DNA of 64,000 nt from an uncultured Chthonomonadales bacterium (lineage in GTDB: Bacteria; Armatimonadota; Chthonomonadetes; Chthonomonadales; CAJBBX01): contig CALLMM010000005.1 of the NCBI GenBank assembly GCA_938005745.1, forward strand, positions 33,895 through 97,894, given 5' to 3'. Below, one piece after another: positions 6,168-64,000 of this stretch. Below the pieces are notes generated by a model. The model made no database searches. It was given only the letters and a program-made list of their open reading frames with translations, and was not told where the DNA came from. The position numbers were made by a program, and so were the translations under genes. Every line of letters starts with the position of its first letter. The first letter of the stretch is position 1.

Positions 6168-6520
6168 GGGGGTGATTGGAGTCGACTCGGGCGATGACAT
6201 CTCTGGTGGCGAGCCGAGGCGCCGCTGGCCTCGTAAAAAGCGGCAAAACAATAAACGCGAACACCAATCAGTACGCGCTCGCTGCCTAATTAGGCAGCGC
6301 GTCCGCCCGTCTCCTGTTGGCCGAGACGACTGCGGGCGTCACCTATGCCAACTAACCTGACCGGGCGCGTCCGCCGCCCCGTCAGGGACATTCCAGCGTA
6401 ATAGTCCGGCGGTATCCTGTCTATGGGGGACGGCCGGATGAACCCAGAACATAGACTACGCTCGTAGATGCCCGGGGTGTGTCCTCGAGGACCGGGGTTC
6501 GAGTCCCCGCACCTCCACCA
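6168..6520 (+). ncRNA. ssrA: tmRNA (transfer-messenger RNA, SsrA)
   Basis: 5' GGGGGUGAUUGGAGUCGAC and 3' GGGGUUCGAGUCCCCGCACCUCCACCA form a tRNA-Ala-like acceptor stem with G3:U wobble and a T-arm. The internal tag frame ends ...GCG AAC ACC AAT CAG TAC GCG CTC GCT GCC TAA = ANTNQYALAA* (6257-6289). The stop lies in the perfect palindrome GCTGCCTAATTAGGCAGC. Confidence 0.93.
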
Positions 6521-52940: not shown

Positions 52941-53582
52941 ATGCCCATGCTACACGACATGGTCCCCCCGGAGAACGAGAATGGCTGCGCCCGGCAGCAG
53001 GAGTTCGAGGCGCTCTATCGTAGAAACCGGCAGAGAGCCTACAACCTCGCCTATCGCCTGCTGGGTAACCGCGCGGAAGCCGAGGACGTTGCGCAGGACG
53101 CCTTCGTGCGCGCATGGCACAGTTTTGCTCAGTACGACCGCGCGCGACCGTTTGAGAGCTGGCTGATGCGGATCGTCACCAATCTGGTGATTGACCGGCG
53201 CCGCCGCCAGAAGCGGGTGAACATCTGTTCGCTGGACGCTCCCGCCGCCTCCGGCACGGACGGCTCCTCCATGTTGCTGGAGCTTCCGGACTCCTCGCGG
53301 GAGCCGGAGAGCCTGCTGATGGCGGGCACCTATGAGGAGTCGCTGCAGCAGGCGCTGTCGTTGCTGCCTCCCCGCTATCGCGAGCCGGTGCTGCTGGCGG
53401 ATGTAGAGGAGCTGTCCTATGAGGAGATCGCCGCGCTCCTCAACTGTCCGGTCGGCACGGTTCGCTCCCGGATCCATCGCGCCCGTCTGATGCTGCGCGA
53501 TACGCTGATGGGCAACGCCTCCCGGCGTCGCAGGAAGGGAGGCGCGGTCAGCCATAGCGCGGCGTCCCCGGTGCGCGCATAA
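52941..53582 (+). CDS. ECF-type RNA polymerase sigma-70 family factor
   Basis: Region 2 (AEDVAQDAFVRAW...FESWLMRIVTNLVIDRRR) and region 4 (LSYEEIAALLNCPVGTVRSRIHRAR). AAGGAG Shine-Dalgarno. Confidence 0.88.
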   Translation: MPMLHDMVPPENENGCARQQEFEALYRRNRQRAYNLAYRLLGNRAEAEDVAQDAFVRAWHSFAQYDRARPFESWLMRIVTNLVIDRRRRQKRVNICSLDAPAASGTDGSSMLLELPDSSREPESLLMAGTYEESLQQALSLLPPRYREPVLLADVEELSYEEIAALLNCPVGTVRSRIHRARLMLRDTLMGNASRRRRKGGAVSHSAASPVRA

Positions 53583-53966
53583 CGCAGAGCCGCCTGTCAG
53601 AACGGCGCGGATCGCCGCTTATCCCTCATGAGAGAGCGAAAAAGCCCATTTTGAACTGAATTTTCTCTGGTACCAGAAGTCACATCCGCCCGAAATTCGT
53701 GTCGTGGTCTGCTCCAGGGATAGGGCAGTTCTGTCATCCTTTGCGGCAGAGGGTGGGGTAAGGAAGCTTCTTTCGAAAGGCGAGTTTTGGGGAGTCCGGA
53801 AGGATGAAATGGTCTCCCCAAAAACTGCCCCCTAGGCTGTCCCCCCTCTGGCGCAAGGAGGTCTATAGCGCCACTCCGGCTGTGTCCGCCGAAAGGAGTG
53901 CTGCCCACTCCAGCGCTGAACCGCAACTCATCGGAGTGAGGGAATAGAAGTGAGGAGTAAGAGGCG

Positions 53967-54036
53967 CCCCTCTCTTCTCTCTCTCCTCTTCCCTCTCTTC
54001 CCCCAACGGAGGCGTTTTCTCTCCCCTCTCTTCTCT
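53967..54036. repeat. Polypyrimidine (CT-rich) low-complexity tract
   Basis: 38-nt pure C/T run (53967-54004) and a 22-nt C/T run (54015-54036), preceded by a purine-rich stretch GGAATAGAAGTGAGGAGTAAGAGG. Confidence 0.8.
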
Positions 54037-54135
54037 AGTGTGAAGGAATCCCCCCAAGGAACAGATAATCTCTCCTCTGTAGAAGAAGTGCGATTCCAAA
54101 AGGACGGTCGCACTGCTATATAACCGAGGGGAAAG

Positions 54136-55104
54136 ATGTATCCAGAGACCACAGACACTCGTGAAGATGCCCTCCCTTTCTCACTTCTGCCTTCGGTACC
54201 CTCCTTTGCCGGACATCAGACATTTCCTTTTCGATCTGGATGGCTTAAAAAAGGGTTAGATGCGCTGCAATCTCCTGAGTTGGGAGTAGGCGCGCTGTTT
54301 ACGCGCGAGGATGCTCTGACCATCCTAGGGGTCGGCAAGAATATGACGCAGAGTATTCGTCACTGGCTGCTGACAACACGCATGGCTTGCGAGCGAACTA
54401 CTGGGACAAGACGTACCCTTGAACCAACAGCTCTGGGGAAAGCGGTTTTTGGCTCTCCGGAAATGGAGGGTTTCGATCCCTATCTCGAAGATGACTCCAC
54501 GCTTTGGCTATTGCACTGGATGCTCACCGGACCGGGTAGTTTAGCTTTTACATGGGTATGGGCTTTCCACTTCTTTCGAGAATATGAATTCACCAGAGAG
54601 TCCTTAACTGACGCGATCTATAACGCTGCCCATAACCGTATCACGAAACCTCCCTCTCGTGAAACCGTTGGTCGTGATGTGCAGTGTTGCCTACACACAT
54701 ACATTACGACTGAGCCCAGCGCAGTTCTTGAAGATACCCTCGACCGTCCACTAAACGCCCTCAATCTGATTCTGCCAAGATACGCGATGCACTATCGGTT
54801 TCAGATTGGAGCCAAGCATACGCTGCCTACGGCGATATTCTGTTACGCCCTGTTGGAATTCTGGCAGTGGAAGCATCCTCGTGCAGATACGCTCTCCCTG
54901 TGGGAAATTGCACACGCACAAGGCAGCCCCGGCGTGGCGTTTAAGCTTGACGAAGACTCGGTTCTGGAGTACCTCGACGAGATTGAAATGACAACGCAGG
55001 GAGCCTGGAGATTCGAAGATACGGCGTTGGTACGGCAGGTGGTGCGCACGAGCCTGCAGCCACTCAACGGGCTACTTCTCTTGCAGAGACACTATCATGG
55101 ATAG
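54136..55104 (+). CDS. DUF4007-family protein (SspB-like component of phosphorothioation-type systems)
   Basis: 322 aa. N-terminal FAGHQTFPFRSGWLKKG motif that I recognise as the DUF4007 signature. GAGGGGAAAG Shine-Dalgarno. Its 3' end overlaps the next gene by 8 nt. Confidence 0.75.
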   Translation: MYPETTDTREDALPFSLLPSVPSFAGHQTFPFRSGWLKKGLDALQSPELGVGALFTREDALTILGVGKNMTQSIRHWLLTTRMACERTTGTRRTLEPTALGKAVFGSPEMEGFDPYLEDDSTLWLLHWMLTGPGSLAFTWVWAFHFFREYEFTRESLTDAIYNAAHNRITKPPSRETVGRDVQCCLHTYITTEPSAVLEDTLDRPLNALNLILPRYAMHYRFQIGAKHTLPTAIFCYALLEFWQWKHPRADTLSLWEIAHAQGSPGVAFKLDEDSVLEYLDEIEMTTQGAWRFEDTALVRQVVRTSLQPLNGLLLLQRHYHG

Positions 55105-58100
55105 ACCTGTCTTCCTAGCTGATGTGATTGAGGTACGCAGCCGTTTCCAGCGTTCTGTACACCTGGAGCGAGACTACAACACCTGCGCAGATGGTTATCA
55201 TCCCACTGAGTCAGCTCTTCAAGCGCTGCGAGCCGTAGACCGCGCTCTGGGCTATCCGACAGATCGGGCAATGACCCTGATCGGGCCCTATGGCGCGGGG
55301 AAGAGCGCCTTTTGCGTTCAACTTGCGCATCTGCTGGAGCATCGCACGTTCCAGCCCTGGCTGCAGGCGGCAGGTTCGCTAAATGGCAGCCTGGCACGAC
55401 TCTTTCAGAGTGACGATCGCGCACTCATCCCAATACTCCTCGTCGGTTCGCGCCAATCGCTGGCGTCAAGTTTGACAGCAGCGCTTACGCAGGGACTGCA
55501 GCGCCGCAGTCATGTTCGGCTGCTGGAACATCTGAAGAGAGAGTCGGAGGCGTTAAGATGTCCTGCGCCTTCCCCGCGTCAGACGGCAGATCTATATCAT
55601 ATGGCGGCATCTCATGCGGTGCTAGAGGGAGCGTACGGAGTTGTCTTGATCGTTGATGAGATGGGCAAATTCCTTGAGCATGCGGCGTTGCATCCACAAG
55701 AGGGCGACATCTTCGTACTTCAGGAACTGGCGGAAGCAGCGGCGAGAAGCGGTGAACATCCCCTCATTGTGATGACGGTTTTGCATCAGAGTGCAGAAGC
55801 CTATGCTCAGAAGTTAGGTCGCACATTCCAGGCAGAGTGGTCGAAAATCGGCGAACGTTTCCGACAGATCGCATTTTTCCCTTCCGATATGGAGAGGATC
55901 GAAATGGTCGGGCTCGCCTTAAAACAGAACAACGACCTGCATCGCGACGCGATCGTAGAACGTCTGAGCCTGCTATGTGTAGAACGGAAATTGACGCCAC
56001 CGGGTTTGGAGGAACGGTTTCCTGCGCTCGCCTGTGCCGCCTACCCCCTGCACCCAGTCTCGCTGCTGACACTTCCGGCGCTCTTTCGCAAGATCGGGCA
56101 GAGTCACCGCAGCCTCTTTGCTTTCCTGTCCGGTGATGAACCGCACGCGCTCGGTCGTTTTCTTCGCGAAACGCCCTATGTATCAGACAGCCCTCCCCTC
56201 TATATGCCGGACTCAGTCTTTGATTATGCGGCGGAGGCGCTTCGAGGCTCTTGGAACGCCCCGGGAGCTGCGCGGTTATGGGCGGAAGCGGTAGACACAG
56301 TAGACCGTGCCTTCGACCTCCCGGAACTTCCAAGGCGAGTTCTGAAGGTGATTGCTCTGCTGGGGATCCTCAAAGACCCGCGTCTGACCCCCTCTCAGAG
56401 TACTCTGGAGTGCGCGTTGACAACCGGTAGCGGCGAATACCCTGACATTTCTGATGCGCTTTTGGAGCTTCAGGAACGCCGACTCATCGTCTACAGCCGC
56501 ACGTACAACACCTACCGACTGTGGGAAGGCGGGGATGTGGATATCGAGGCAGAGATGGCGGCTGCACGCGCCGCGCTGCCGGCAGGAATCTCCCTGCACG
56601 TCGCCTCAAACCTGTGTCCGCCGCCCAAACTGATTGCACGCAGACACTCCTACGAGACCGGTACCGTTCGCGCCGTCACGTCGGTCCCCTGCGGAGTGAT
56701 GGATTTGAAAAAAACGGCTGCGGAGCATTCTTCTCAGCTAACCGTGTTGTTGTGTCTGGTGACTTCGCAGGAGGAGGTGGAGCAGGCAGAAACGACTGCA
56801 CGATCCTGTGATCAGTCGCAGACACTTATCGCCATTGCTCGCGAGACCGATACCTTGCGAGAGGCGGCGCAGGAGATTGCAGCTGCACAACGTGTTGCAC
56901 AAGAGACCCCTGGACTCGCCTCTGACCGTGCTGCGCGCCGTGAACTGGCTACGCGACGACAAGAGGCGGAGACGGCGTTCCGTCAGGAGTGGAACCGTCT
57001 CTTCATGCCGGATCAAAAAGCGCGCAGTGAAACGTCGTGGTTTTACCAGCGCCAGCGAATAGAGATAGTAGGTACGCGGAAATTCTCGGCGCATCTGTCC
57101 CGCATGGCAGATCTAACCTTTCCAGACGCCCCGCGTCTACGCAATGAGCTGATCAACCGCCAGACTCTCTCTTCGGCGGCGGCGGCAGGACGCAGAGAGC
57201 TGATCGAGGCGATGCTGACTCATTCAGCAGAGCAACGTCTCGGCATTCGGGGCTTTCCCCCCTCTGCTAGTATGTACGAGTGTCTGTTACGGGCAACAGG
57301 GATCCATCAGGAGGTGGCGCCAGGACGATGGGGTTTCGCATCTCCCTCCAGAGCTCCCCTGTCAGACCCTGCGCGTCTGCTCCCATGCTGGCAAGCGTTA
57401 GAGAGGATGATCTTCCGTGAGCCTCCAGAGCCGCGACCGCTGCGAGAGGTCTATGCCGCGCTCAGTGCGCCTCCGTATGGCATCACTGCCGGGGTAATGC
57501 CGGTACTGTTGTGCGCTTTCCTTCTGGCTCACCCGGACGAGACGACCCTCTACCGGGAGGACACATTCATCGCGGAACCTACTACTGCGGACTGGGAGGT
57601 GCTGCTTCGACGACCGGAGCTTTTTGCCGTTGCCGGATGCCGGGTGAGCGGCGATCGGGCGGCGGTCGTGCAGCGTCTGGCGCGGGGGTTGAAGTGCGCG
57701 CCGGCGCTCGTGCCCGTTGTCCGTGCGCTGTTACGTATGGTTCGCAGTCTGCCTGAGCACTCCTGGAAGACACGGCGCCTGCCCGAGCATGTGTTGGCGT
57801 TGCGCGATGCGATGCAGCGCGCCCGATCCCCCGAAAGCCTGCTGTTTCGCGATCTGCCCGCCGCTTTGGGCATCATCGTGCTCTCTGGTCAGGAGGTAGA
57901 CGACGCACATGTAGAGGAGTTCTTTCGGGCGCTGAACGCCGCCCTGCAGCAATGGAGCCGCGCTACCCCGGATGTAGTTGCTCAGGCGCGTGACGCCCTG
58001 CTGCTGGCATGCGGACTGAATCCTGGCAGCGCGGGGTTCCACACGCTGCGTGAGCAGGCGGCTGTGATGGAGCCGCAGGTAATGGACCCGCGACTACTGC

Positions 58101-58465
58101 CCCTTGTTCGACGAGCCGCACAACCGGGTGACGATCAAACGGTACTTGAGAGCGTTCTTGCGCTTGTCGCCGACCGTCCTCCCCGTACCTGGACAGACGC
58201 CGACGCCGACCGCTTCCATGCGCAGACGAAAGCGATCGGGGCAGTTTTCCGGCGGGAATGGATGCGGGCAGAAGAGTTAGCATCCTCATCCTTGTCGCCG
58301 GATGAGGAGACGCATAGCCGGCAGCTACTGGAGAGCCTGCGCCAGTACCTGAGGACACAACCAGCCTATGCACAGATGCCACCCCGCGTTCTGCGCGCTG
58401 CCCTCTCGGCGCTATTGCAGGAGGTGGACCGTAACGAAATGAATGAAGGAGTACAGACCGAGTGA
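55097..58465 (+). CDS. Large P-loop ATPase, SspC / BrxC(PglY) / DUF499-like
   Basis: 1122 aa. Walker A LIGPYGAGKSAF, Walker B VVLIVDEMGKF, downstream YPLHPVSLLTLPALFRKIGQSHRSLFAFL motif typical of BrxC/DUF499-type ATPases. Confidence 0.75.
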   Translation: MDRPVFLADVIEVRSRFQRSVHLERDYNTCADGYHPTESALQALRAVDRALGYPTDRAMTLIGPYGAGKSAFCVQLAHLLEHRTFQPWLQAAGSLNGSLARLFQSDDRALIPILLVGSRQSLASSLTAALTQGLQRRSHVRLLEHLKRESEALRCPAPSPRQTADLYHMAASHAVLEGAYGVVLIVDEMGKFLEHAALHPQEGDIFVLQELAEAAARSGEHPLIVMTVLHQSAEAYAQKLGRTFQAEWSKIGERFRQIAFFPSDMERIEMVGLALKQNNDLHRDAIVERLSLLCVERKLTPPGLEERFPALACAAYPLHPVSLLTLPALFRKIGQSHRSLFAFLSGDEPHALGRFLRETPYVSDSPPLYMPDSVFDYAAEALRGSWNAPGAARLWAEAVDTVDRAFDLPELPRRVLKVIALLGILKDPRLTPSQSTLECALTTGSGEYPDISDALLELQERRLIVYSRTYNTYRLWEGGDVDIEAEMAAARAALPAGISLHVASNLCPPPKLIARRHSYETGTVRAVTSVPCGVMDLKKTAAEHSSQLTVLLCLVTSQEEVEQAETTARSCDQSQTLIAIARETDTLREAAQEIAAAQRVAQETPGLASDRAARRELATRRQEAETAFRQEWNRLFMPDQKARSETSWFYQRQRIEIVGTRKFSAHLSRMADLTFPDAPRLRNELINRQTLSSAAAAGRRELIEAMLTHSAEQRLGIRGFPPSASMYECLLRATGIHQEVAPGRWGFASPSRAPLSDPARLLPCWQALERMIFREPPEPRPLREVYAALSAPPYGITAGVMPVLLCAFLLAHPDETTLYREDTFIAEPTTADWEVLLRRPELFAVAGCRVSGDRAAVVQRLARGLKCAPALVPVVRALLRMVRSLPEHSWKTRRLPEHVLALRDAMQRARSPESLLFRDLPAALGIIVLSGQEVDDAHVEEFFRALNAALQQWSRATPDVVAQARDALLLACGLNPGSAGFHTLREQAAVMEPQVMDPRLLPLVRRAAQPGDDQTVLESVLALVADRPPRTWTDADADRFHAQTKAIGAVFRREWMRAEELASSSLSPDEETHSRQLLESLRQYLRTQPAYAQMPPRVLRAALSALLQEVDRNEMNEGVQTE

Positions 58466-59286
58466 ACACGCCTGAACCGACCTTAGCCAAGCCTGTACGA
58501 CATATCCTCTCCCTCTCCGGAGGAAAAGACAGCACCGCCCTCGCTATCTACATGCGCGACAAAGTGCCACAGATGGAGTATGTGTTCTGTGATACTGGCG
58601 AGGAGATGATAGAGACATATGAATACCTTGATAAATTGGAAGCTTATCTAGGATGTTCGATTACACGCCTGAATCCTGAAAGACCGTTCAATCATTATCT
58701 TGAAATTTATCGCGGTGTTTTACCTGACGCCAGGACAAGATGGTGTACCCGTATGCTCAAAATTAGGCCTTTTGAGAAGTATGTTGGCGACGACCCGGTC
58801 ATCAACTATATCGGGATCCGCGCCGATGAGAACCGCAAAGGGTACCTCTCCAGCAAGCCCAATATTCAGGCGCGCTATCCCTTCATCGAAGACGGCATTC
58901 GTAAAGAGGATGTGATGCGCATTCTGGAGGAGAGCGGACTCGGTCTACCGGACTACTACCGGTGGCGTTCACGTTCGGGATGCTACTTCTGTTTCTTTCA
59001 ACAGAGAATTGAGTGGGTTGGGCTTCTGGAGAATCATCCCGATCTGTTCGAGAAAGCACATATGTATGAGAAATTCGATTTAGCATCAGGAAAGCGTTAT
59101 ACTTGGTGTCAAAAGGAGAGTCTTCGAGAGTTATCGGATCCAGCCAGATTGGCACAAATCAAAGCTGATTATGAGAAACGAATCTCAGACCAGCAACGGT
59201 TCAAAAGCGGTCGTTCGTTAGGGGAAGTTCTGTCTGATGAGGAAGAAGCAGAATTTGAAAGAGCCTGCCTGATTTGTGAATTGTAG
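58462..59286 (+). CDS. PP-loop ATP pyrophosphatase, PAPS-reductase fold (DndC/SspD-like)
   Basis: 274 aa. SLSGGKDS PP-loop. GTG start overlaps the ATPase stop (GTGA). C-terminal cysteines (SGCYFCFF, CLICEL). Markedly AT-richer than the rest of the window. Confidence 0.8.
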   Translation: MNTPEPTLAKPVRHILSLSGGKDSTALAIYMRDKVPQMEYVFCDTGEEMIETYEYLDKLEAYLGCSITRLNPERPFNHYLEIYRGVLPDARTRWCTRMLKIRPFEKYVGDDPVINYIGIRADENRKGYLSSKPNIQARYPFIEDGIRKEDVMRILEESGLGLPDYYRWRSRSGCYFCFFQQRIEWVGLLENHPDLFEKAHMYEKFDLASGKRYTWCQKESLRELSDPARLAQIKADYEKRISDQQRFKSGRSLGEVLSDEEEAEFERACLICEL

Positions 59287-59321
59287 CCTAAATGAGATAT
59301 TAAACCTACCAGGAGAATTAC

Positions 59322-59566
59322 TTGATTTTAGACGATCTAAATAGATTTTGGGCTTCCATAAACAAGCTGAAACGGGGTAGTCAGTCAGGGAGGCTTAAGC
59401 CGCACAAGCTCGCATGCTACTAGCTGTCCTTGACCTCGCGGAAGACGGGTTTATGAAAGAGAATCGGATATATTATGACGAGGCATTGATCGCACGCTTC
59501 AAGCGTAACTTCAGGCTTCTATCCGATAGGTCGGATTGATGTCAACCTGGTCCCCCGTTTTTTCAC
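59322..59566 (+). pseudogene. Disrupted 5' part of the next gene: DNA-reading head domain (PHK..LLLAVLDL / PFFHL..DFWH type) broken by a frameshift and an in-frame TGA
   Basis: AGGAG Shine-Dalgarno, 6 nt, then TTG at 59322 gives LILDDLNRFWASINKLKRGSQSGRLKPHKLA and stops at TAG 59421. The sequence continues in the -1 frame from about 59415 as (M)LLLAVLDLAEDGFMKENRIYYDEALIARFKRNF...SD, then TGA 59537-59539. It continues in the same frame as CQPGPPFFHLRTSDFWHH into track ORF 59567..60574. Confidence 0.6.
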
Positions 59567-60574
59567 TTGCGCACATCGGATTTCTGGCATCACAAGATAA
59601 AACCCGATCGGCTGGAAGAATATTCTATGTTGGACACGAGTGGAGGTGTTTCCAAACGCACAGTTGACAATATCGAGTATGCCTATTTAAGCGACTATGC
59701 TTTTGCCTGCGTCCTAGATCCCGATAGTCGTCAGATTATCCGACAAAACATCATGAACATCAACAAGTTAGCATTAGCTTTCAACGAAACACTTCCCTTC
59801 AGAAGGTCTTCACTCTCACAAGTTTTGAGAAAATACTCTACTGGTGGAAAAATTACATTCGAAAAACTGTGCAATCATACCACACTAGGTACCAGTGAAG
59901 TTAAAGCTGTTCGAAGAATTTCATATGGCACAGGTTTGATTGATCAATATCATCAGATCACTCCCTTTGGAAAGGTTGTTACAGAACACGATCCAAACTT
60001 CAGTCGAGAATCGACCCAATGGCTCCTGCACTATCATATGTGTGCGCCGCACCGTACCGGTCCGGCGTTCTGGCACCATCTGGTAACGACTCAGCTTCAC
60101 CTCGGCGATGAGCTGAGCTCGCGACAGGTCGCGGAGAGTATACGGGAGTTCTCTCTGCAGGCGGGAGAGAAGGAGCTGAAGTTCGAAACCTACCAGCAGG
60201 CGGCGACGATTTTCCTCGGAACCTACAGCAGTCCGGACGGACTGGGAGACCTGGGCATTCTGAAGCGTGGGGAGGGACCGGCGGTCTATAAGGTTACTCA
60301 GCCGGAGCTGCCCGCGCCGGAGGTTGTCGCCTATGTCGTCGCGGACTACTGGGAGGGCGTATGGCCAACTCTGCTGAGCATAGACTTCAGCCAGTTGACC
60401 GGTGCGGAGGGACCGGCGGCGCTCCTTCTGATGAGAAGCGGCGACATGTTCGAGATGCTGCGTAAGATGCAGGCGGATCACCTGATCCTGCTGGAGCGCG
60501 CCACCCGTCCCTGGAAGGTGAAGCGGCTGTGGGGAGATACACATGAGCTTCTCGAGCGGGTCTTCGCACGATAA
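59567..60574 (+). CDS. DUF4007-like protein (paralog of 54136..55104), possibly the surviving part of an interrupted gene
   Basis: Central region LGTSEVKAVRRISYGTGLID...ESTQWLLHYHMCAPHRTGPAFWHHLV parallels LGVGKNMTQSIRHWLLTTRMA...DSTLWLLHWMLTGPGSLAFTWVWAF of the first DUF4007 protein. It lacks the FxGHxTFPFR N-terminal motif. A functional start, if any, could be TTG 59567 or ATG 59627. Confidence 0.55.
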   Translation: MRTSDFWHHKIKPDRLEEYSMLDTSGGVSKRTVDNIEYAYLSDYAFACVLDPDSRQIIRQNIMNINKLALAFNETLPFRRSSLSQVLRKYSTGGKITFEKLCNHTTLGTSEVKAVRRISYGTGLIDQYHQITPFGKVVTEHDPNFSRESTQWLLHYHMCAPHRTGPAFWHHLVTTQLHLGDELSSRQVAESIREFSLQAGEKELKFETYQQAATIFLGTYSSPDGLGDLGILKRGEGPAVYKVTQPELPAPEVVAYVVADYWEGVWPTLLSIDFSQLTGAEGPAALLLMRSGDMFEMLRKMQADHLILLERATRPWKVKRLWGDTHELLERVFAR

Positions 60575-61053: not shown

Positions 61054-64000
61054 ATGAGGCTGACCGACATGTTAATTAAAGAGATCGTATCACATGACAG
61101 TTTTGCCAACTTTGAAAACGACGTTCAGATCGGCTGGTACCCGAAAGATCCTCGGAACCTACGTATGGTGGAGAGCTACATCTTCACCAACCAGGCGACA
61201 CAGGGGAAGAAATCGTCGCTGGAGATCCTGGATCTGATCCGGCTCTCCTACATCCACAGTCGGGAAAACCGCTTTGTGGTGATGGCGACATATGGTCACG
61301 GCAAAAGCCACCTTGCCCTGACCATGGCCAACTTTTTCGGTCAACCTGCCGACTCACCGGAGGTTCGCGCTATTCTGGGCAAGATTGAGCACTGTTCTAG
61401 CCCTTCGCGCGCACAGGGGTTCCGGGACTTCAAGGAGGGAAACGCCCCGTTTCTCGTCGTGCGTCTGCGCGGAGACAAAGCACCTAAGCTGCCGCAGCAG
61501 TTTCTGCATGGTCTGCAGACCGCCCTGCATGAGCAGGAGGCGACCCGCGATGCGCACCTGCCCTTCTGGTTCGAGCAGGCTGCCGGTTATCTGCAAAAGA
61601 TACAGGATAACTCTCATCAGCTCGCTGCAGCCAACGCCTTTCTGGAGCGGCAGTCCCAGCATCCCTCCATTCGTGACGTCCCGGCGCTTCTGCGGGAAGT
61701 GCAGAACAGCAACCCGTCGGTGCATGAGCTTTGCCGATCGCTCTCAGCAGAGATGAACCATGGCGTGCCGCTGGACTTCGGGGGATCCATAAGCCTGCAG
61801 TATGCGCTGGAGCGGGTTGTAGACGACTATTGCGGTACAGGCAAACCCTACCGTGGCATACTGATCCTATTCGACGAGTTGAGCGCTTTTGTGCGCGACT
61901 ACGCGCAGTCGTCTGGAGTGGGACATGGCAACGCCCTGCAGGATATCCTCGAAGGGGTACGCAACCGTCTGGGACGCGCAACCTTCGTCGCCTTCTCACA
62001 ACACGACCCCCTGGAGACCGCCGAAAACTTCTTCAAGATAGGCACTGCTTCGCATCAACGTGAGACGCTGATGCATCAACTGCAGCGGCTGCCTAAAGAC
62101 CAGAAATACCAGCTCTACTCCTCGCTGGAAATGGTGCTGGACTCCTACCTGAAACAGGAGGAGACTGGTTGGGAACTCCTTTGTGAACAGGCGAGCGATG
62201 CGCTGGATAAAGCGAGCGGCGTCACTATGAACCTCTTCCAGGATCGGTACAATCATGCGCAGGGATGGGACCTTGAAGATATTGACGAGATTCTGACCAA
62301 AGGCTGCTTCCCGCTGCATCCGCTTACGACCGCCCTGCTATGCAGCGTTGAGTTTCGCGAGGTTACCAGTCCGCGCTCCGTACTTGGTTTCCTGCAGGAG
62401 GCTCTCAGCCGATGGGGCGACCAGCCTGCATTGAAAGGCAGCGCCCCCAACTGGCTCTATCCCGTCGAGCTAGTGGACTGGTTTGGCGAGATGCTGGCGG
62501 ATGAGGAGTACCAGCAGTATCGCAGCGCCTGTCTCTCCGCGGGTGCGGATGTCACACCGGAGCAGACCGCCATCCTGAAGGCGATGCTGCTGCAGAGCGT
62601 GGCAAGGTTGAGTACCGAGCGCTATCGCCACTTGCAGCTCATGCATCTGCTGACCGGTCTACCAGAAAAGCAGTGTCAGCAGGCGTTGGAGGGGCTAAGC
62701 AGCCGCCAGGTGATCCGCTCGGACGAGAGCGCCTTCTCCTTCTGGCCTCCAGGCGTAGACGGCAGCCGCCTCGAGCAGGAGGTCAATCGGATCGTTCAGA
62801 CACGCATTTTCAACCTCAACGTTCTGGAGAATATCAATCGGGATTGGCAGGCGAGCCGATTGCAGGCTATCCGGGTAGATGCTCTCTCCTGGGCTAACGA
62901 TGCTGACTTCTCCGCCCGTCAGATTCTGGTCACTCACGAAGCCTTCTCGCCGGAGTTTCTGCGTAGACAGATCAAGACTTTCCGAAGCTCCGGAGACCTG
63001 GACACTCCCCGCGGCTTTGTGTTCTGGCTAGTCGCTCAGACCCACGATCAGATTCTGGACTACATCGAACGGGCGGAGCAGGTGCTGGAGGAGGCGTTAA
63101 AGGGGATAGAATCTCCTCCCCCCGTTCTGATTGGGGTGCCTGAAACCCCTACTCCAGAGTTCGAAAAGCTGGTACTGAAGGAGGATGTCATCAACAATCT
63201 TCCGCAAAATATCATACGCAACTCCGACTCGTCGGTCCTCTTTCAAATGAAAGAGGACTACAAAAAGAGGGTGTCTGCTGCTCTGACAACTCTTAAGGAG
63301 AAAGCGGACTTCCACGTACCCCTTCGCTACCGATCGCACGTCAAAATCCGATCTCCCCACAGACGCTGCGAGACCATGCTGCCAGCCTGTTATGAAGCCG
63401 CCTACCGACTGGGTCCGCCAGCGTTTCGTAAGCAGACACCTTTCACAAATCCGTCTCTGCGCAAGGCGGTTGGATTACTTGCCGAAGGGCTATCCAAAAA
63501 CAACCTCCACTTGCCCGAGCATGCATGGCGCAAAGACAAAGTCGCCGATGAGATTATGAATAAGTTTCTGCGTATAGGTGGGATCTCCTCGTGGAGACTG
63601 GTCGGCGCGGACTACGCGGTGTGCGAGCCGGGTGACGCTAACATACGCGAGGCATGGGACTACCTGAACCGTCATTTCGAGCCAGGCAAAGGCGCTGTGC
63701 CGATCCGGGACGCCGTCCTGACACTGATGGATCCTCCCTACGGCTACGACCCGAACCATGTGACCCTGCTTCTGTCCGCCTGGTACGGCTATCACCGGCA
63801 CGAAGTAAAGCTGCGCGAGGATCACTGCTACACAACGCTGGACACTCTCTTCAAGCACCCCTTCAAGACGGAGGATTTCCTGAAACGACTCCTGGACCGG
63901 ATAAATACCCTCTATATCGAAAGAGTGGATCGGGGTGAGACGATCCGACAGGCGGAGAAGCTCGCGAATATGGTCGTTAAGGGAGGCAAAAAATTCACTC
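61054..64000 (+). CDS. Second large P-loop ATPase, BrxC/PglY/DUF499-like (3'-partial, runs off the window)
   Basis: Not in the ORF track because no stop is reached. I translated 61054 to 64000 by hand and found no stop (more than 980 codons). Motifs: MVESYIFTNQ, Walker A VMATYGHGKSHLAL, Walker B GILILFDELSAF, CFPLHPLTTALLCSVEFREVTSPRSVLGFL (paralogous to the YPLHP motif of 55097..58465). Start is ATG 61054 or ATG 61069 (GAGG 8 nt upstream). Confidence 0.7.
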   Translation, partial: MRLTDMLIKEIVSHDSFANFENDVQIGWYPKDPRNLRMVESYIFTNQATQGKKSSLEILDLIRLSYIHSRENRFVVMATYGHGKSHLALTMANFFGQPADSPEVRAILGKIEHCSSPSRAQGFRDFKEGNAPFLVVRLRGDKAPKLPQQFLHGLQTALHEQEATRDAHLPFWFEQAAGYLQKIQDNSHQLAAANAFLERQSQHPSIRDVPALLREVQNSNPSVHELCRSLSAEMNHGVPLDFGGSISLQYALERVVDDYCGTGKPYRGILILFDELSAFVRDYAQSSGVGHGNALQDILEGVRNRLGRATFVAFSQHDPLETAENFFKIGTASHQRETLMHQLQRLPKDQKYQLYSSLEMVLDSYLKQEETGWELLCEQASDALDKASGVTMNLFQDRYNHAQGWDLEDIDEILTKGCFPLHPLTTALLCSVEFREVTSPRSVLGFLQEALSRWGDQPALKGSAPNWLYPVELVDWFGEMLADEEYQQYRSACLSAGADVTPEQTAILKAMLLQSVARLSTERYRHLQLMHLLTGLPEKQCQQALEGLSSRQVIRSDESAFSFWPPGVDGSRLEQEVNRIVQTRIFNLNVLENINRDWQASRLQAIRVDALSWANDADFSARQILVTHEAFSPEFLRRQIKTFRSSGDLDTPRGFVFWLVAQTHDQILDYIERAEQVLEEALKGIESPPPVLIGVPETPTPEFEKLVLKEDVINNLPQNIIRNSDSSVLFQMKEDYKKRVSAALTTLKEKADFHVPLRYRSHVKIRSPHRRCETMLPACYEAAYRLGPPAFRKQTPFTNPSLRKAVGLLAEGLSKNNLHLPEHAWRKDKVADEIMNKFLRIGGISSWRLVGADYAVCEPGDANIREAWDYLNRHFEPGKGAVPIRDAVLTLMDPPYGYDPNHVTLLLSAWYGYHRHEVKLREDHCYTTLDTLFKHPFKTEDFLKRLLDRINTLYIERVDRGETIRQAEKLANMVVKGGKKFT

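Follow-up and report, generated by a model that had tools for sequence, protein, structure and literature searches.

We analysed a 64,000-nucleotide (nt) stretch of a contig from an uncultured Chthonomonadales bacterium (CALLMM010000005.1, positions 33,895 to 97,894; henceforth referred to as the window, with coordinates counted from its first letter) and focused on three genes at 54,136–59,286, and on those that follow them, all on the forward strand. An initial annotation, made from the sequence alone, had taken the three for an SspBCD-like DNA modification module. The first gene, sspB (54136..55104), starts with ATG and encodes a 322-residue protein that matches the Pfam family DUF4007 (E-value 7.1e-74), the PADLOC model of SspB (1.5e-86) and the solved SspB structure (PDB 6JUF/6LB9, 5.5e-31). 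In characterised Ssp systems SspB is the DNA-recognition and nicking subunit. The second gene, sspC (55097..58465, ATG start), encodes a P-loop ATPase of the BrxC/PglY family (ORC/Cdc6-type) with 1122 residues, which matches PADLOC SspC over its full length (8.9e-298, model positions 1–1049 of 1054) and in which both the Walker A motif (GPYGAGKS at residue 63) and the Walker B motif (VLIVDE at residue 183) are intact. The third gene, sspD (58462..59286, GTG start), encodes a PP-loop ATP pyrophosphatase of the PAPS-reductase fold with 274 residues, which matches PADLOC SspD (5.6e-116, model positions 1–276 of 277) and Pfam PAPS_reduct (1.6e-13). As the initial annotation had pointed out, this protein has an SGGKDS loop (residues 19–24) and the C-terminal cysteine pairs C174/C177 (CYFC) and C269/C272 (CLIC); these motifs and a further cysteine, C95, are invariant in 72–80 relatives. 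The NCBIfam model of the assimilatory enzyme CysH (PRK02090) scored only 26.1 bits, far short of its cut-off of 154, which leaves the family assignment standing. DndC can be set aside as well (PADLOC DndC gave 2.5e-4 over just 36 residues and no full-length match), as can BrxP, which gave a partial match only (1.3e-8) to the 274-residue protein. Overall, these comparisons of sequence identify the three genes as a genuine, full-length SspB-SspC-SspD module for DNA phosphorothioation (PT), as had been proposed.

Relatives were collected in a scan for SspD with one genome per species, which yielded 79 loci with 57–70% identity, the nearest SspD being that of a Sphaerobacter metagenome-assembled genome (70%). 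Gene order in these loci was read by tblastn with eight proteins of the island to which sspBCD belong. Public contigs and related loci carrying SspD homologues are labelled L001, L002 and so on. Two of them extend the view beyond the window, as both reach a position equivalent to 71,043: L001 is identical to the window over 13,458 nt, and L002, an independent assembly of a sister strain, is 99.87% identical to the window's island.

The overlaps between the three genes are as originally annotated. The end of sspB (CAT GGA TAG) and the ATG of sspC at 55097 share 8 nt (ATGGATAG), and the sspC/sspD junction is a 4-nt overlap, GTGA at 58462–58465, inside which lies the GTG start of sspD. This GTG is the sole start codon between the in-frame upstream stop and the PP-loop, and a GAAGGAG Shine-Dalgarno sequence is found ~10 nt 5' of it. 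The order sspB-sspC-sspD is common to 59 relatives, in which, by a counting method that favours overlaps, about 36 of the 59 sspB-sspC junctions and 22 of the 59 sspC-sspD junctions were readable as overlaps, spanning 1–14 nt. Overlaps of 4 or 11 nt also occur at other gene pairs in the window (28781, 29497 and 50380). Because short overlaps are thus ordinary, both in the window and among relatives, the initial view of tight translational coupling with stoichiometric co-expression goes too far: judged from the junctions, the overlaps agree with the packing of genes in an operon and would allow translational coupling, and a fixed stoichiometry does not follow.

The genes from 59.6 kb on had not been seen in the initial annotation as a partner module of the same operon that resembles bacteriophage exclusion (BREX) systems. 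The full head-to-tail order reads sspB, sspC, sspD, a dead gene for a sulfur-binding domain (SBD), a second DUF4007 gene, a gene for an unannotated 166-residue protein (here called P166), a second brxC-like gene, pglZ and a short brxL. Spacing between genes ranges from a 32-nt overlap to a 16-nt gap, save for the pseudogene stretch, and the eight reading frames other than that of the SBD are intact, including those of 1122 and 1404 residues, as are the catalytic motifs. The same co-linear order was detected by tblastn in 21 of the 79 SspD loci, in Chloroflexota (Sphaerobacter, Anaerolineae, Caldilineales and Levilinea saccharolytica KIBI-1), Armatimonadota (Chthonomonadales), Acidobacteriota (Bryobacterales) and Planctomycetota (Phycisphaerae), and when the loci are ranked by similarity of SspC, 17 of the top 20 have the BREX-like half. 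The cultured Anaerolinea thermolimosa (L083, DF967967.1) has sspB, sspC, sspD, SBD, DUF4007, P166-like, brxC, pglZ, brxL and Aminotran_5 genes in this order. We regard the whole array as one unit because, in relatives, the cysteine desulfurase, which belongs to the modification side, is encoded on the far side of the BREX half (see below). On the evidence of gene order, sspBCD are the front half of what appears to be a conserved eight-gene Ssp/BREX-type anti-phage operon. In the A. thermolimosa locus a phage-type integrase gene lies just upstream, and an apparent split of sspC is an assembly gap of Ns.

The second DUF4007 gene (sspB-prime, 59753..60574) encodes a BrxA-like protein of 273 residues (Pfam DUF4007 4.1e-13, PADLOC SspB 4e-16). 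Gene callers place its start at 59,567, 59,627 or 60,038 (335, 315 and 178 residues); homology to the N-termini of relatives favours the ATG at 59,753. A reading of this gene as the remnant of a BrxP fusion was rejected, given that its homologues are all stand-alone proteins of 268–290 residues. When compared with its relative in L082, residues 1–90 show 30–40% identity and residues 91–273 show 67–80%, with the breakpoint at a conserved motif (STQWLLHYHMCAPHRTGPAFW). The former segment lies in a low-GC block and the latter in GC-rich DNA, with the step at about 60,000. The low-GC block (0.38–0.54; window 58,500–60,000) takes in sspD and the SBD pseudogene and reaches through the first third of the second DUF4007 gene; it is flanked on either side by GC-rich DNA (0.57–0.66). 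Judged by identity and composition, the second DUF4007 gene is recombinant, with an sspD-SBD cassette next to it that seems to have originated in another lineage.

P166 (60543..61043, overlapping the second DUF4007 gene by 32 nt) had no match in Pfam, PADLOC or PDB sequences, even with an 18-sequence profile, and belongs to a family of 112 clusters of stand-alone ‘hypothetical’ proteins, all of 150–170 residues. An AlphaFold2 model built with a 57-sequence alignment reached a predicted local distance difference test score (pLDDT) of 90.1; with 6 sequences the model was unusable (pLDDT 54.7). Foldseek matched the former to the alpha/beta core of AAA+ proteins (Yta7, ORC4/5, DnaA and Hda) with E-values of 3e-4 to 4e-3 and template modelling (TM) scores of 0.37–0.52, and P166 has no Walker A motif. 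In type 4 BREX, DUF4007 has been described as BrxA-like, and a BrxB-like inactive STAND module is fused to PglZ in 64% of systems (PMC12839542). On its modelled fold, P166 is a candidate for such a BrxB-like ‘inactive STAND’ subunit.

The next gene, brxC-prime, runs from 61069 to the end of the window at 64000 and on to window-equivalent position 65,283 (L001 10527–14741), and encodes a second BrxC/SspC-like P-loop ATPase of 1404 residues. Its first 982 residues match PADLOC SspC (5.5e-20) and it has Walker A (GHGKS) and Walker B (LILFDE) motifs; its kinship with SspC is remote, as BLASTP between the two gave only an E-value of 0.002. A run of five Ts in this gene (window 61,333–61,337) is a run of six Ts in L002 (about 10,791), which splits the product into 106 and 1274 residues; this may reflect decay, phase variation or a sequencing error in the homopolymer. 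The last two genes were read in L001: 3' of brxC-prime lies pglZ (PADLOC 7.3e-78), and 3' of pglZ a short brxL of 474 residues (PADLOC 9.3e-208; Pfam BrxL_N and BrxL_ATPase), which lacks the Lon protease domain and matched a PADLOC model of 482 positions. By direct folding, a perfect 16-bp hairpin (−31.8 kcal/mol) followed by TTTTGT was found 3' of brxL.

The stretch of 340 nt that follows sspD, seemingly a spacer, encodes a domain of ~145 residues in two frames, with the motifs KPHK...LLAVLDL and PFFHLR..FW. By reading all three frames and by homology to intact relatives, we assign 59322..59764 to a pseudogene of a stand-alone SBD, a reader of PT. It starts with TTG at 59322, with AGGAG 7 nt upstream. 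Two lesions break it: one nucleotide is missing at about 59,413 (after KPHKLA), and a TGG at 59,537–59,539 has become TGA. It has no stop codon of its own, and its 3' end enters the second DUF4007 gene in frame. Since both lesions are also present in L002, they are real and not errors of assembly. Intact SBD genes of ~165 residues occupy the same position in seven relatives (L003, L004, L007, L009, L010, L012 and the A. thermolimosa locus), and a profile built from these matched PDB 8H0L (‘SBDHga1’) with an E-value of 2.5e-41. The pseudogene and its intact relatives share the PHK and PFFHL motifs with the SBDs of PT-dependent nucleases (ScoMcrA/SprMcrA; SBDHga, PDB 8H0L), but differ from these in that the domain of the Ssp/BREX operon stands alone, with ~165 residues and no nuclease, and is inactivated here. 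Because most complete relatives of the operon have no SBD, it would be an accessory of this operon type. The domain recurs in plain sspBCD loci, there fused to an HNH nuclease (L045), to NERD and protein kinase domains (L016) or to a P-loop nucleoside triphosphatase (L028), and the fusions in L016, L028, L045 and L046 sit just 3' of sspD or of the desulfurase. From their domain make-up, these fusions are candidate PT-sensing effectors.

The initial annotation had seen no SspA/DndA/IscS-like cysteine desulfurase at 53.6–64 kb. We searched for one with a home-made hidden Markov model (HMM), derived from the cysteine desulfurases of related loci and run on every open reading frame of at least 60 residues, which took over from a regular-expression search for motifs of the pyridoxal phosphate-binding lysine and the active-site cysteine; the latter had given nothing credible in the six frames of the window. 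Neither the HMM nor tblastn with the relatives' proteins found a desulfurase anywhere in the 64-kb window or in L001, and the HMM found none in L002 either, both contigs reaching window-equivalent position 71,043, so that the original observation holds and an sspA homologue is also missing from the sequence downstream of the window to that point. Nor did tblastn with relaxed thresholds find a desulfurase remnant at the island. In 11 of the 12 assessable loci of the full operon type, that is, those whose sequence continues past brxL, a desulfurase lies directly 3' of brxL, and in A. thermolimosa, too, a desulfurase annotated as Aminotran_5 (Pfam PF00266) is the last gene. L011 is without a terminal desulfurase, as is the present genome, in which a terminator and then an extracytoplasmic function (ECF) sigma factor gene follow brxL in its place.

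A missing desulfurase gene is less of an anomaly than it may seem. Among plain sspBCD loci with enough flanking sequence, a desulfurase lies within 10 kb in 2 of 35, and in type 4 BREX only 56% of taxa have one (PMC12839542). An IscS orthologue can do the job of SspA, and the sspBCD genes of E. coli 3234/A have been used without sspA (PMC8092258). According to Yuan et al. (Nat Commun 2026, PMC12914056), the minimal set is sspBCD because IscS can replace SspA, and brxP and brxC together with host SufS suffice for PT synthesis. An sspBCD module with no linked desulfurase is the usual case, and it does not call for a new chemistry. The initial annotation had left two options, a housekeeping desulfurase or a chemistry other than phosphorothioation. 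The first agrees with the published norm of IscS standing in for SspA, and by analogy we assume that the sulfur donor here is a housekeeping enzyme of the IscS/SufS/NifS type encoded elsewhere. The second is disfavoured because sister operons encode Aminotran_5 desulfurases and sulfur-binding readers, of which a dead copy is present here. As sister operons have these dedicated desulfurases and sulfur readers, phosphorothioation is the only well-supported chemistry for this clade.

The left edge of the island is the intergenic region 5' of sspB (53583..54135, ~550 nt), where GC content drops from 0.63–0.65 to 0.51–0.56; across the island it ranges from 0.43 to 0.65, and in the flanks from 0.62 to 0.67. 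A Shine-Dalgarno sequence (GAGGGGAAAG) precedes sspB, and a CT-rich tract of low complexity (CTCTCTTCTCTCTCTCCTCTTCCCTCTCTTCCCCC...) lies at about 53,960–54,040. Upstream, the island borders on ordinary genes of the host (TetR, ECF sigma factor, alcohol dehydrogenase, S13 peptidase and FdhD). Neither a tRNA gene nor convincing flanking direct repeats were found at the island. ECF sigma factor genes lie on both sides (window 52,941–53,582; L001 18,720–19,361), and we considered whether they could be a target or insertion duplication; they are only 29% identical and so are paralogues. The sole RNA gene detected in the window, which has no tRNA genes, is a tmRNA gene at 6,168–6,520 (Rfam 189.7 bits, tag ANTNQYALAA), 47 kb from the island.

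Several known systems resemble the locus in part. Neighbourhood analysis has revealed islands of the ‘sspBCDB-brxCZL type’ in 40 strains (PMC12914056), with sspB, sspC, sspD, a second sspB-like DUF4007 gene, brxC, brxZ (pglZ) and brxL in the same order as here. By gene content and order the present locus is a member of this type, which has been described but not studied experimentally, with the desulfurase missing and the SBD dead. That source reports no experiment on the type, its consulted excerpts do not mention the gene for the 166-residue protein, the stand-alone SBD or the desulfurase after brxL, and functional studies of the hybrid Ssp/BREX type did not turn up in a literature search. 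Three features are possibly undescribed: a small BrxB-like protein that is conserved, a stand-alone SBD gene in some of the operons, and a desulfurase gene in last place. That this genome has lost the SBD and the desulfurase is a curiosity rather than a discovery. The SspABCD-SspE system of Vibrio cyclitrophicus FF75 and the IscS-SspBCD-SspFGH system of Vibrio anguillarum FF-93 (PMC8092258) have homologous SspB, SspC and SspD in the same order, and the latter and E. coli 3234/A likewise rely on IscS with no linked SspA (PMC8092258). In contrast to these systems, the partner module here is BREX-like: neither SspE (DUF262/DUF1524) nor SspFGH was recognised, and among the neighbouring proteins PADLOC matched only SspB, SspC, PglZ and BrxL.

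The closest comparison within BREX is type 4 (brxP-brxC-pglZ-brxL; Bacteroides salyersiae, PMC12914056 and PMC12839542), for which PT synthesis has been shown genetically (PMC12914056) and which likewise combines an enzyme of the PAPS-reductase fold, DUF4007, a BrxC-family ATPase, PglZ and BrxL. Of the features that define type 4, the BrxC-family ATPase, PglZ and BrxL occur together here and the fused BrxP does not. Whereas BrxP is an SspD-SspB fusion of about 780 residues that works with one BrxC, the PAPS-reductase and DUF4007 proteins are separate genes here, the locus has a pair each of DUF4007 proteins and BrxC-family ATPases, and its inactive AAA+ protein is separate rather than fused to PglZ. 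The downstream order also parallels type 1 BREX (brxA-brxB-brxC-pglX-pglZ-brxL), with a BrxA-like DUF4007 protein, a BrxB-like P166, BrxC, PglZ and BrxL, but there is no PglX methyltransferase and BrxL is short, without the Lon protease domain. The equivalence of the second DUF4007 protein to BrxA and of P166 to BrxB is suggested by fold. If it holds, the downstream half may be viewed as a type 1 BREX system that has no methyltransferase and for which sspBCD would serve as writer.

Taken together, we consider it probable that sspBCD act as the PT writer in a composite defence operon of the Ssp/BREX type. As in characterised homologues (PMC8092258 and PMC12914056), SspB would recognise and nick a short motif and SspC would supply ATP hydrolysis; SspD would activate the site, its PP-loop and five invariant cysteines moving persulfide sulfur into the DNA backbone. 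Since the operon has no desulfurase, the persulfide is proposed to come from a housekeeping IscS/SufS/NifS-type enzyme encoded elsewhere, and the BREX-like half would block replication of DNA that does not carry the PT mark. The present genome has lost two accessories kept by relatives, the SBD, now a pseudogene, and the terminal desulfurase. How the two halves share the work is a matter on which we can offer a tentative suggestion, namely that the operon, with its eight to ten genes, is one PT-based BREX variant with duplicated and diverged pairs of DUF4007 and BrxC-family proteins. The SspB/SspC pair, with SspD, may write the mark; the second pair, together with the BrxB-like AAA+ protein, PglZ and the short BrxL, may read it and exclude unmarked DNA, with the stand-alone SBD as an optional sensor.

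Some observations weigh against this interpretation. The housekeeping desulfurase is assumed rather than seen, in a search that covered the window and the sequence up to 71,043. We infer PT modification, its motif and phage exclusion for this operon type, all by analogy. Recognition of some components is weak: the TM-scores of the structural matches of P166 are modest (0.37–0.52), PglZ falls just below the Pfam cut-off (24.7 against 25 bits), and sequence models respond weakly to brxC-prime, whose full-length 1404-residue product had no PADLOC match, probably an effect of the search filter. No promoter was found by a consensus scan, which performed at chance level and also missed the hairpin 3' of brxL. 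Moreover, the loss of the SBD and of the terminal desulfurase, together with the frameshift of the second brxC in L002, could reflect decay.

This last point leads to a different account, in which the locus is a decaying remnant whose genes are still recognisable and whose DNA modification and defence have gone in this organism. The SBD frameshift and nonsense codon occur in two independent assemblies, the terminal desulfurase of 11 of 12 relatives has disappeared with no remnant, and the extra T in the T5 run splits the second brxC of L002, all of which would be expected from decay. However, the other eight frames are intact, the two very long ones (1122 and 1404 residues) included, and so are the catalytic motifs; the SBD is in any case an accessory that most complete relatives do without, and L011 has no terminal desulfurase either. 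Decay to the point of lost function is on balance improbable. We also consider it unlikely that two independent systems, an orphan SspBCD and a BREX-like module working without it, happen to be neighbours in a defence island. Defence genes do often cluster, and neighbouring systems of an island can act independently (PMC12914056); in one relative (L019) the BREX-like genes are convergent to sspBCD, and the breakpoint inside the second DUF4007 gene shows that the halves are exchangeable. Yet independence sits poorly with the co-linear, tightly packed order in about 20 loci from several phyla, with the placement of the desulfurase after brxL in 11 of the 12 loci that could be assessed, and with the fact that similarity of SspC tracks the presence of the BREX half, which has no modification enzyme of its own.

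It remains to weigh the second option of the initial annotation, that the mark made by the SspD-type enzyme is not phosphorothioate. In its favour, the neighbourhood encodes no dedicated sulfur donor, and an alternative chemistry has been raised for Dnd-like systems that lack parts (PMC10853773). That argument, however, was made for systems without a PP-loop enzyme, and the present locus has one. SspD agrees with its model over the full length and has all the invariant cysteines, and the desulfurases and SBDs of sister operons, as well as the dead SBD in this very operon, speak for sulfur. We think it very improbable that the mark is of another kind.

The interpretation that sspBCD write a PT mark for a BREX-like partner bears on BREX biology at large, in which the discrimination of self from non-self and the block to phage replication are still unresolved and genetic work on PT-based systems has so far been confined to Bacteroides. 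A variant that splits writing and reading into paralogous pairs, at times with an SBD reader, would let both activities be separated genetically, and the complete operon has cultured carriers in Anaerolinea thermolimosa and Levilinea saccharolytica KIBI-1. If such a variant is real, the present genome would be a natural test case showing that neither the sensor nor the dedicated desulfurase is required.

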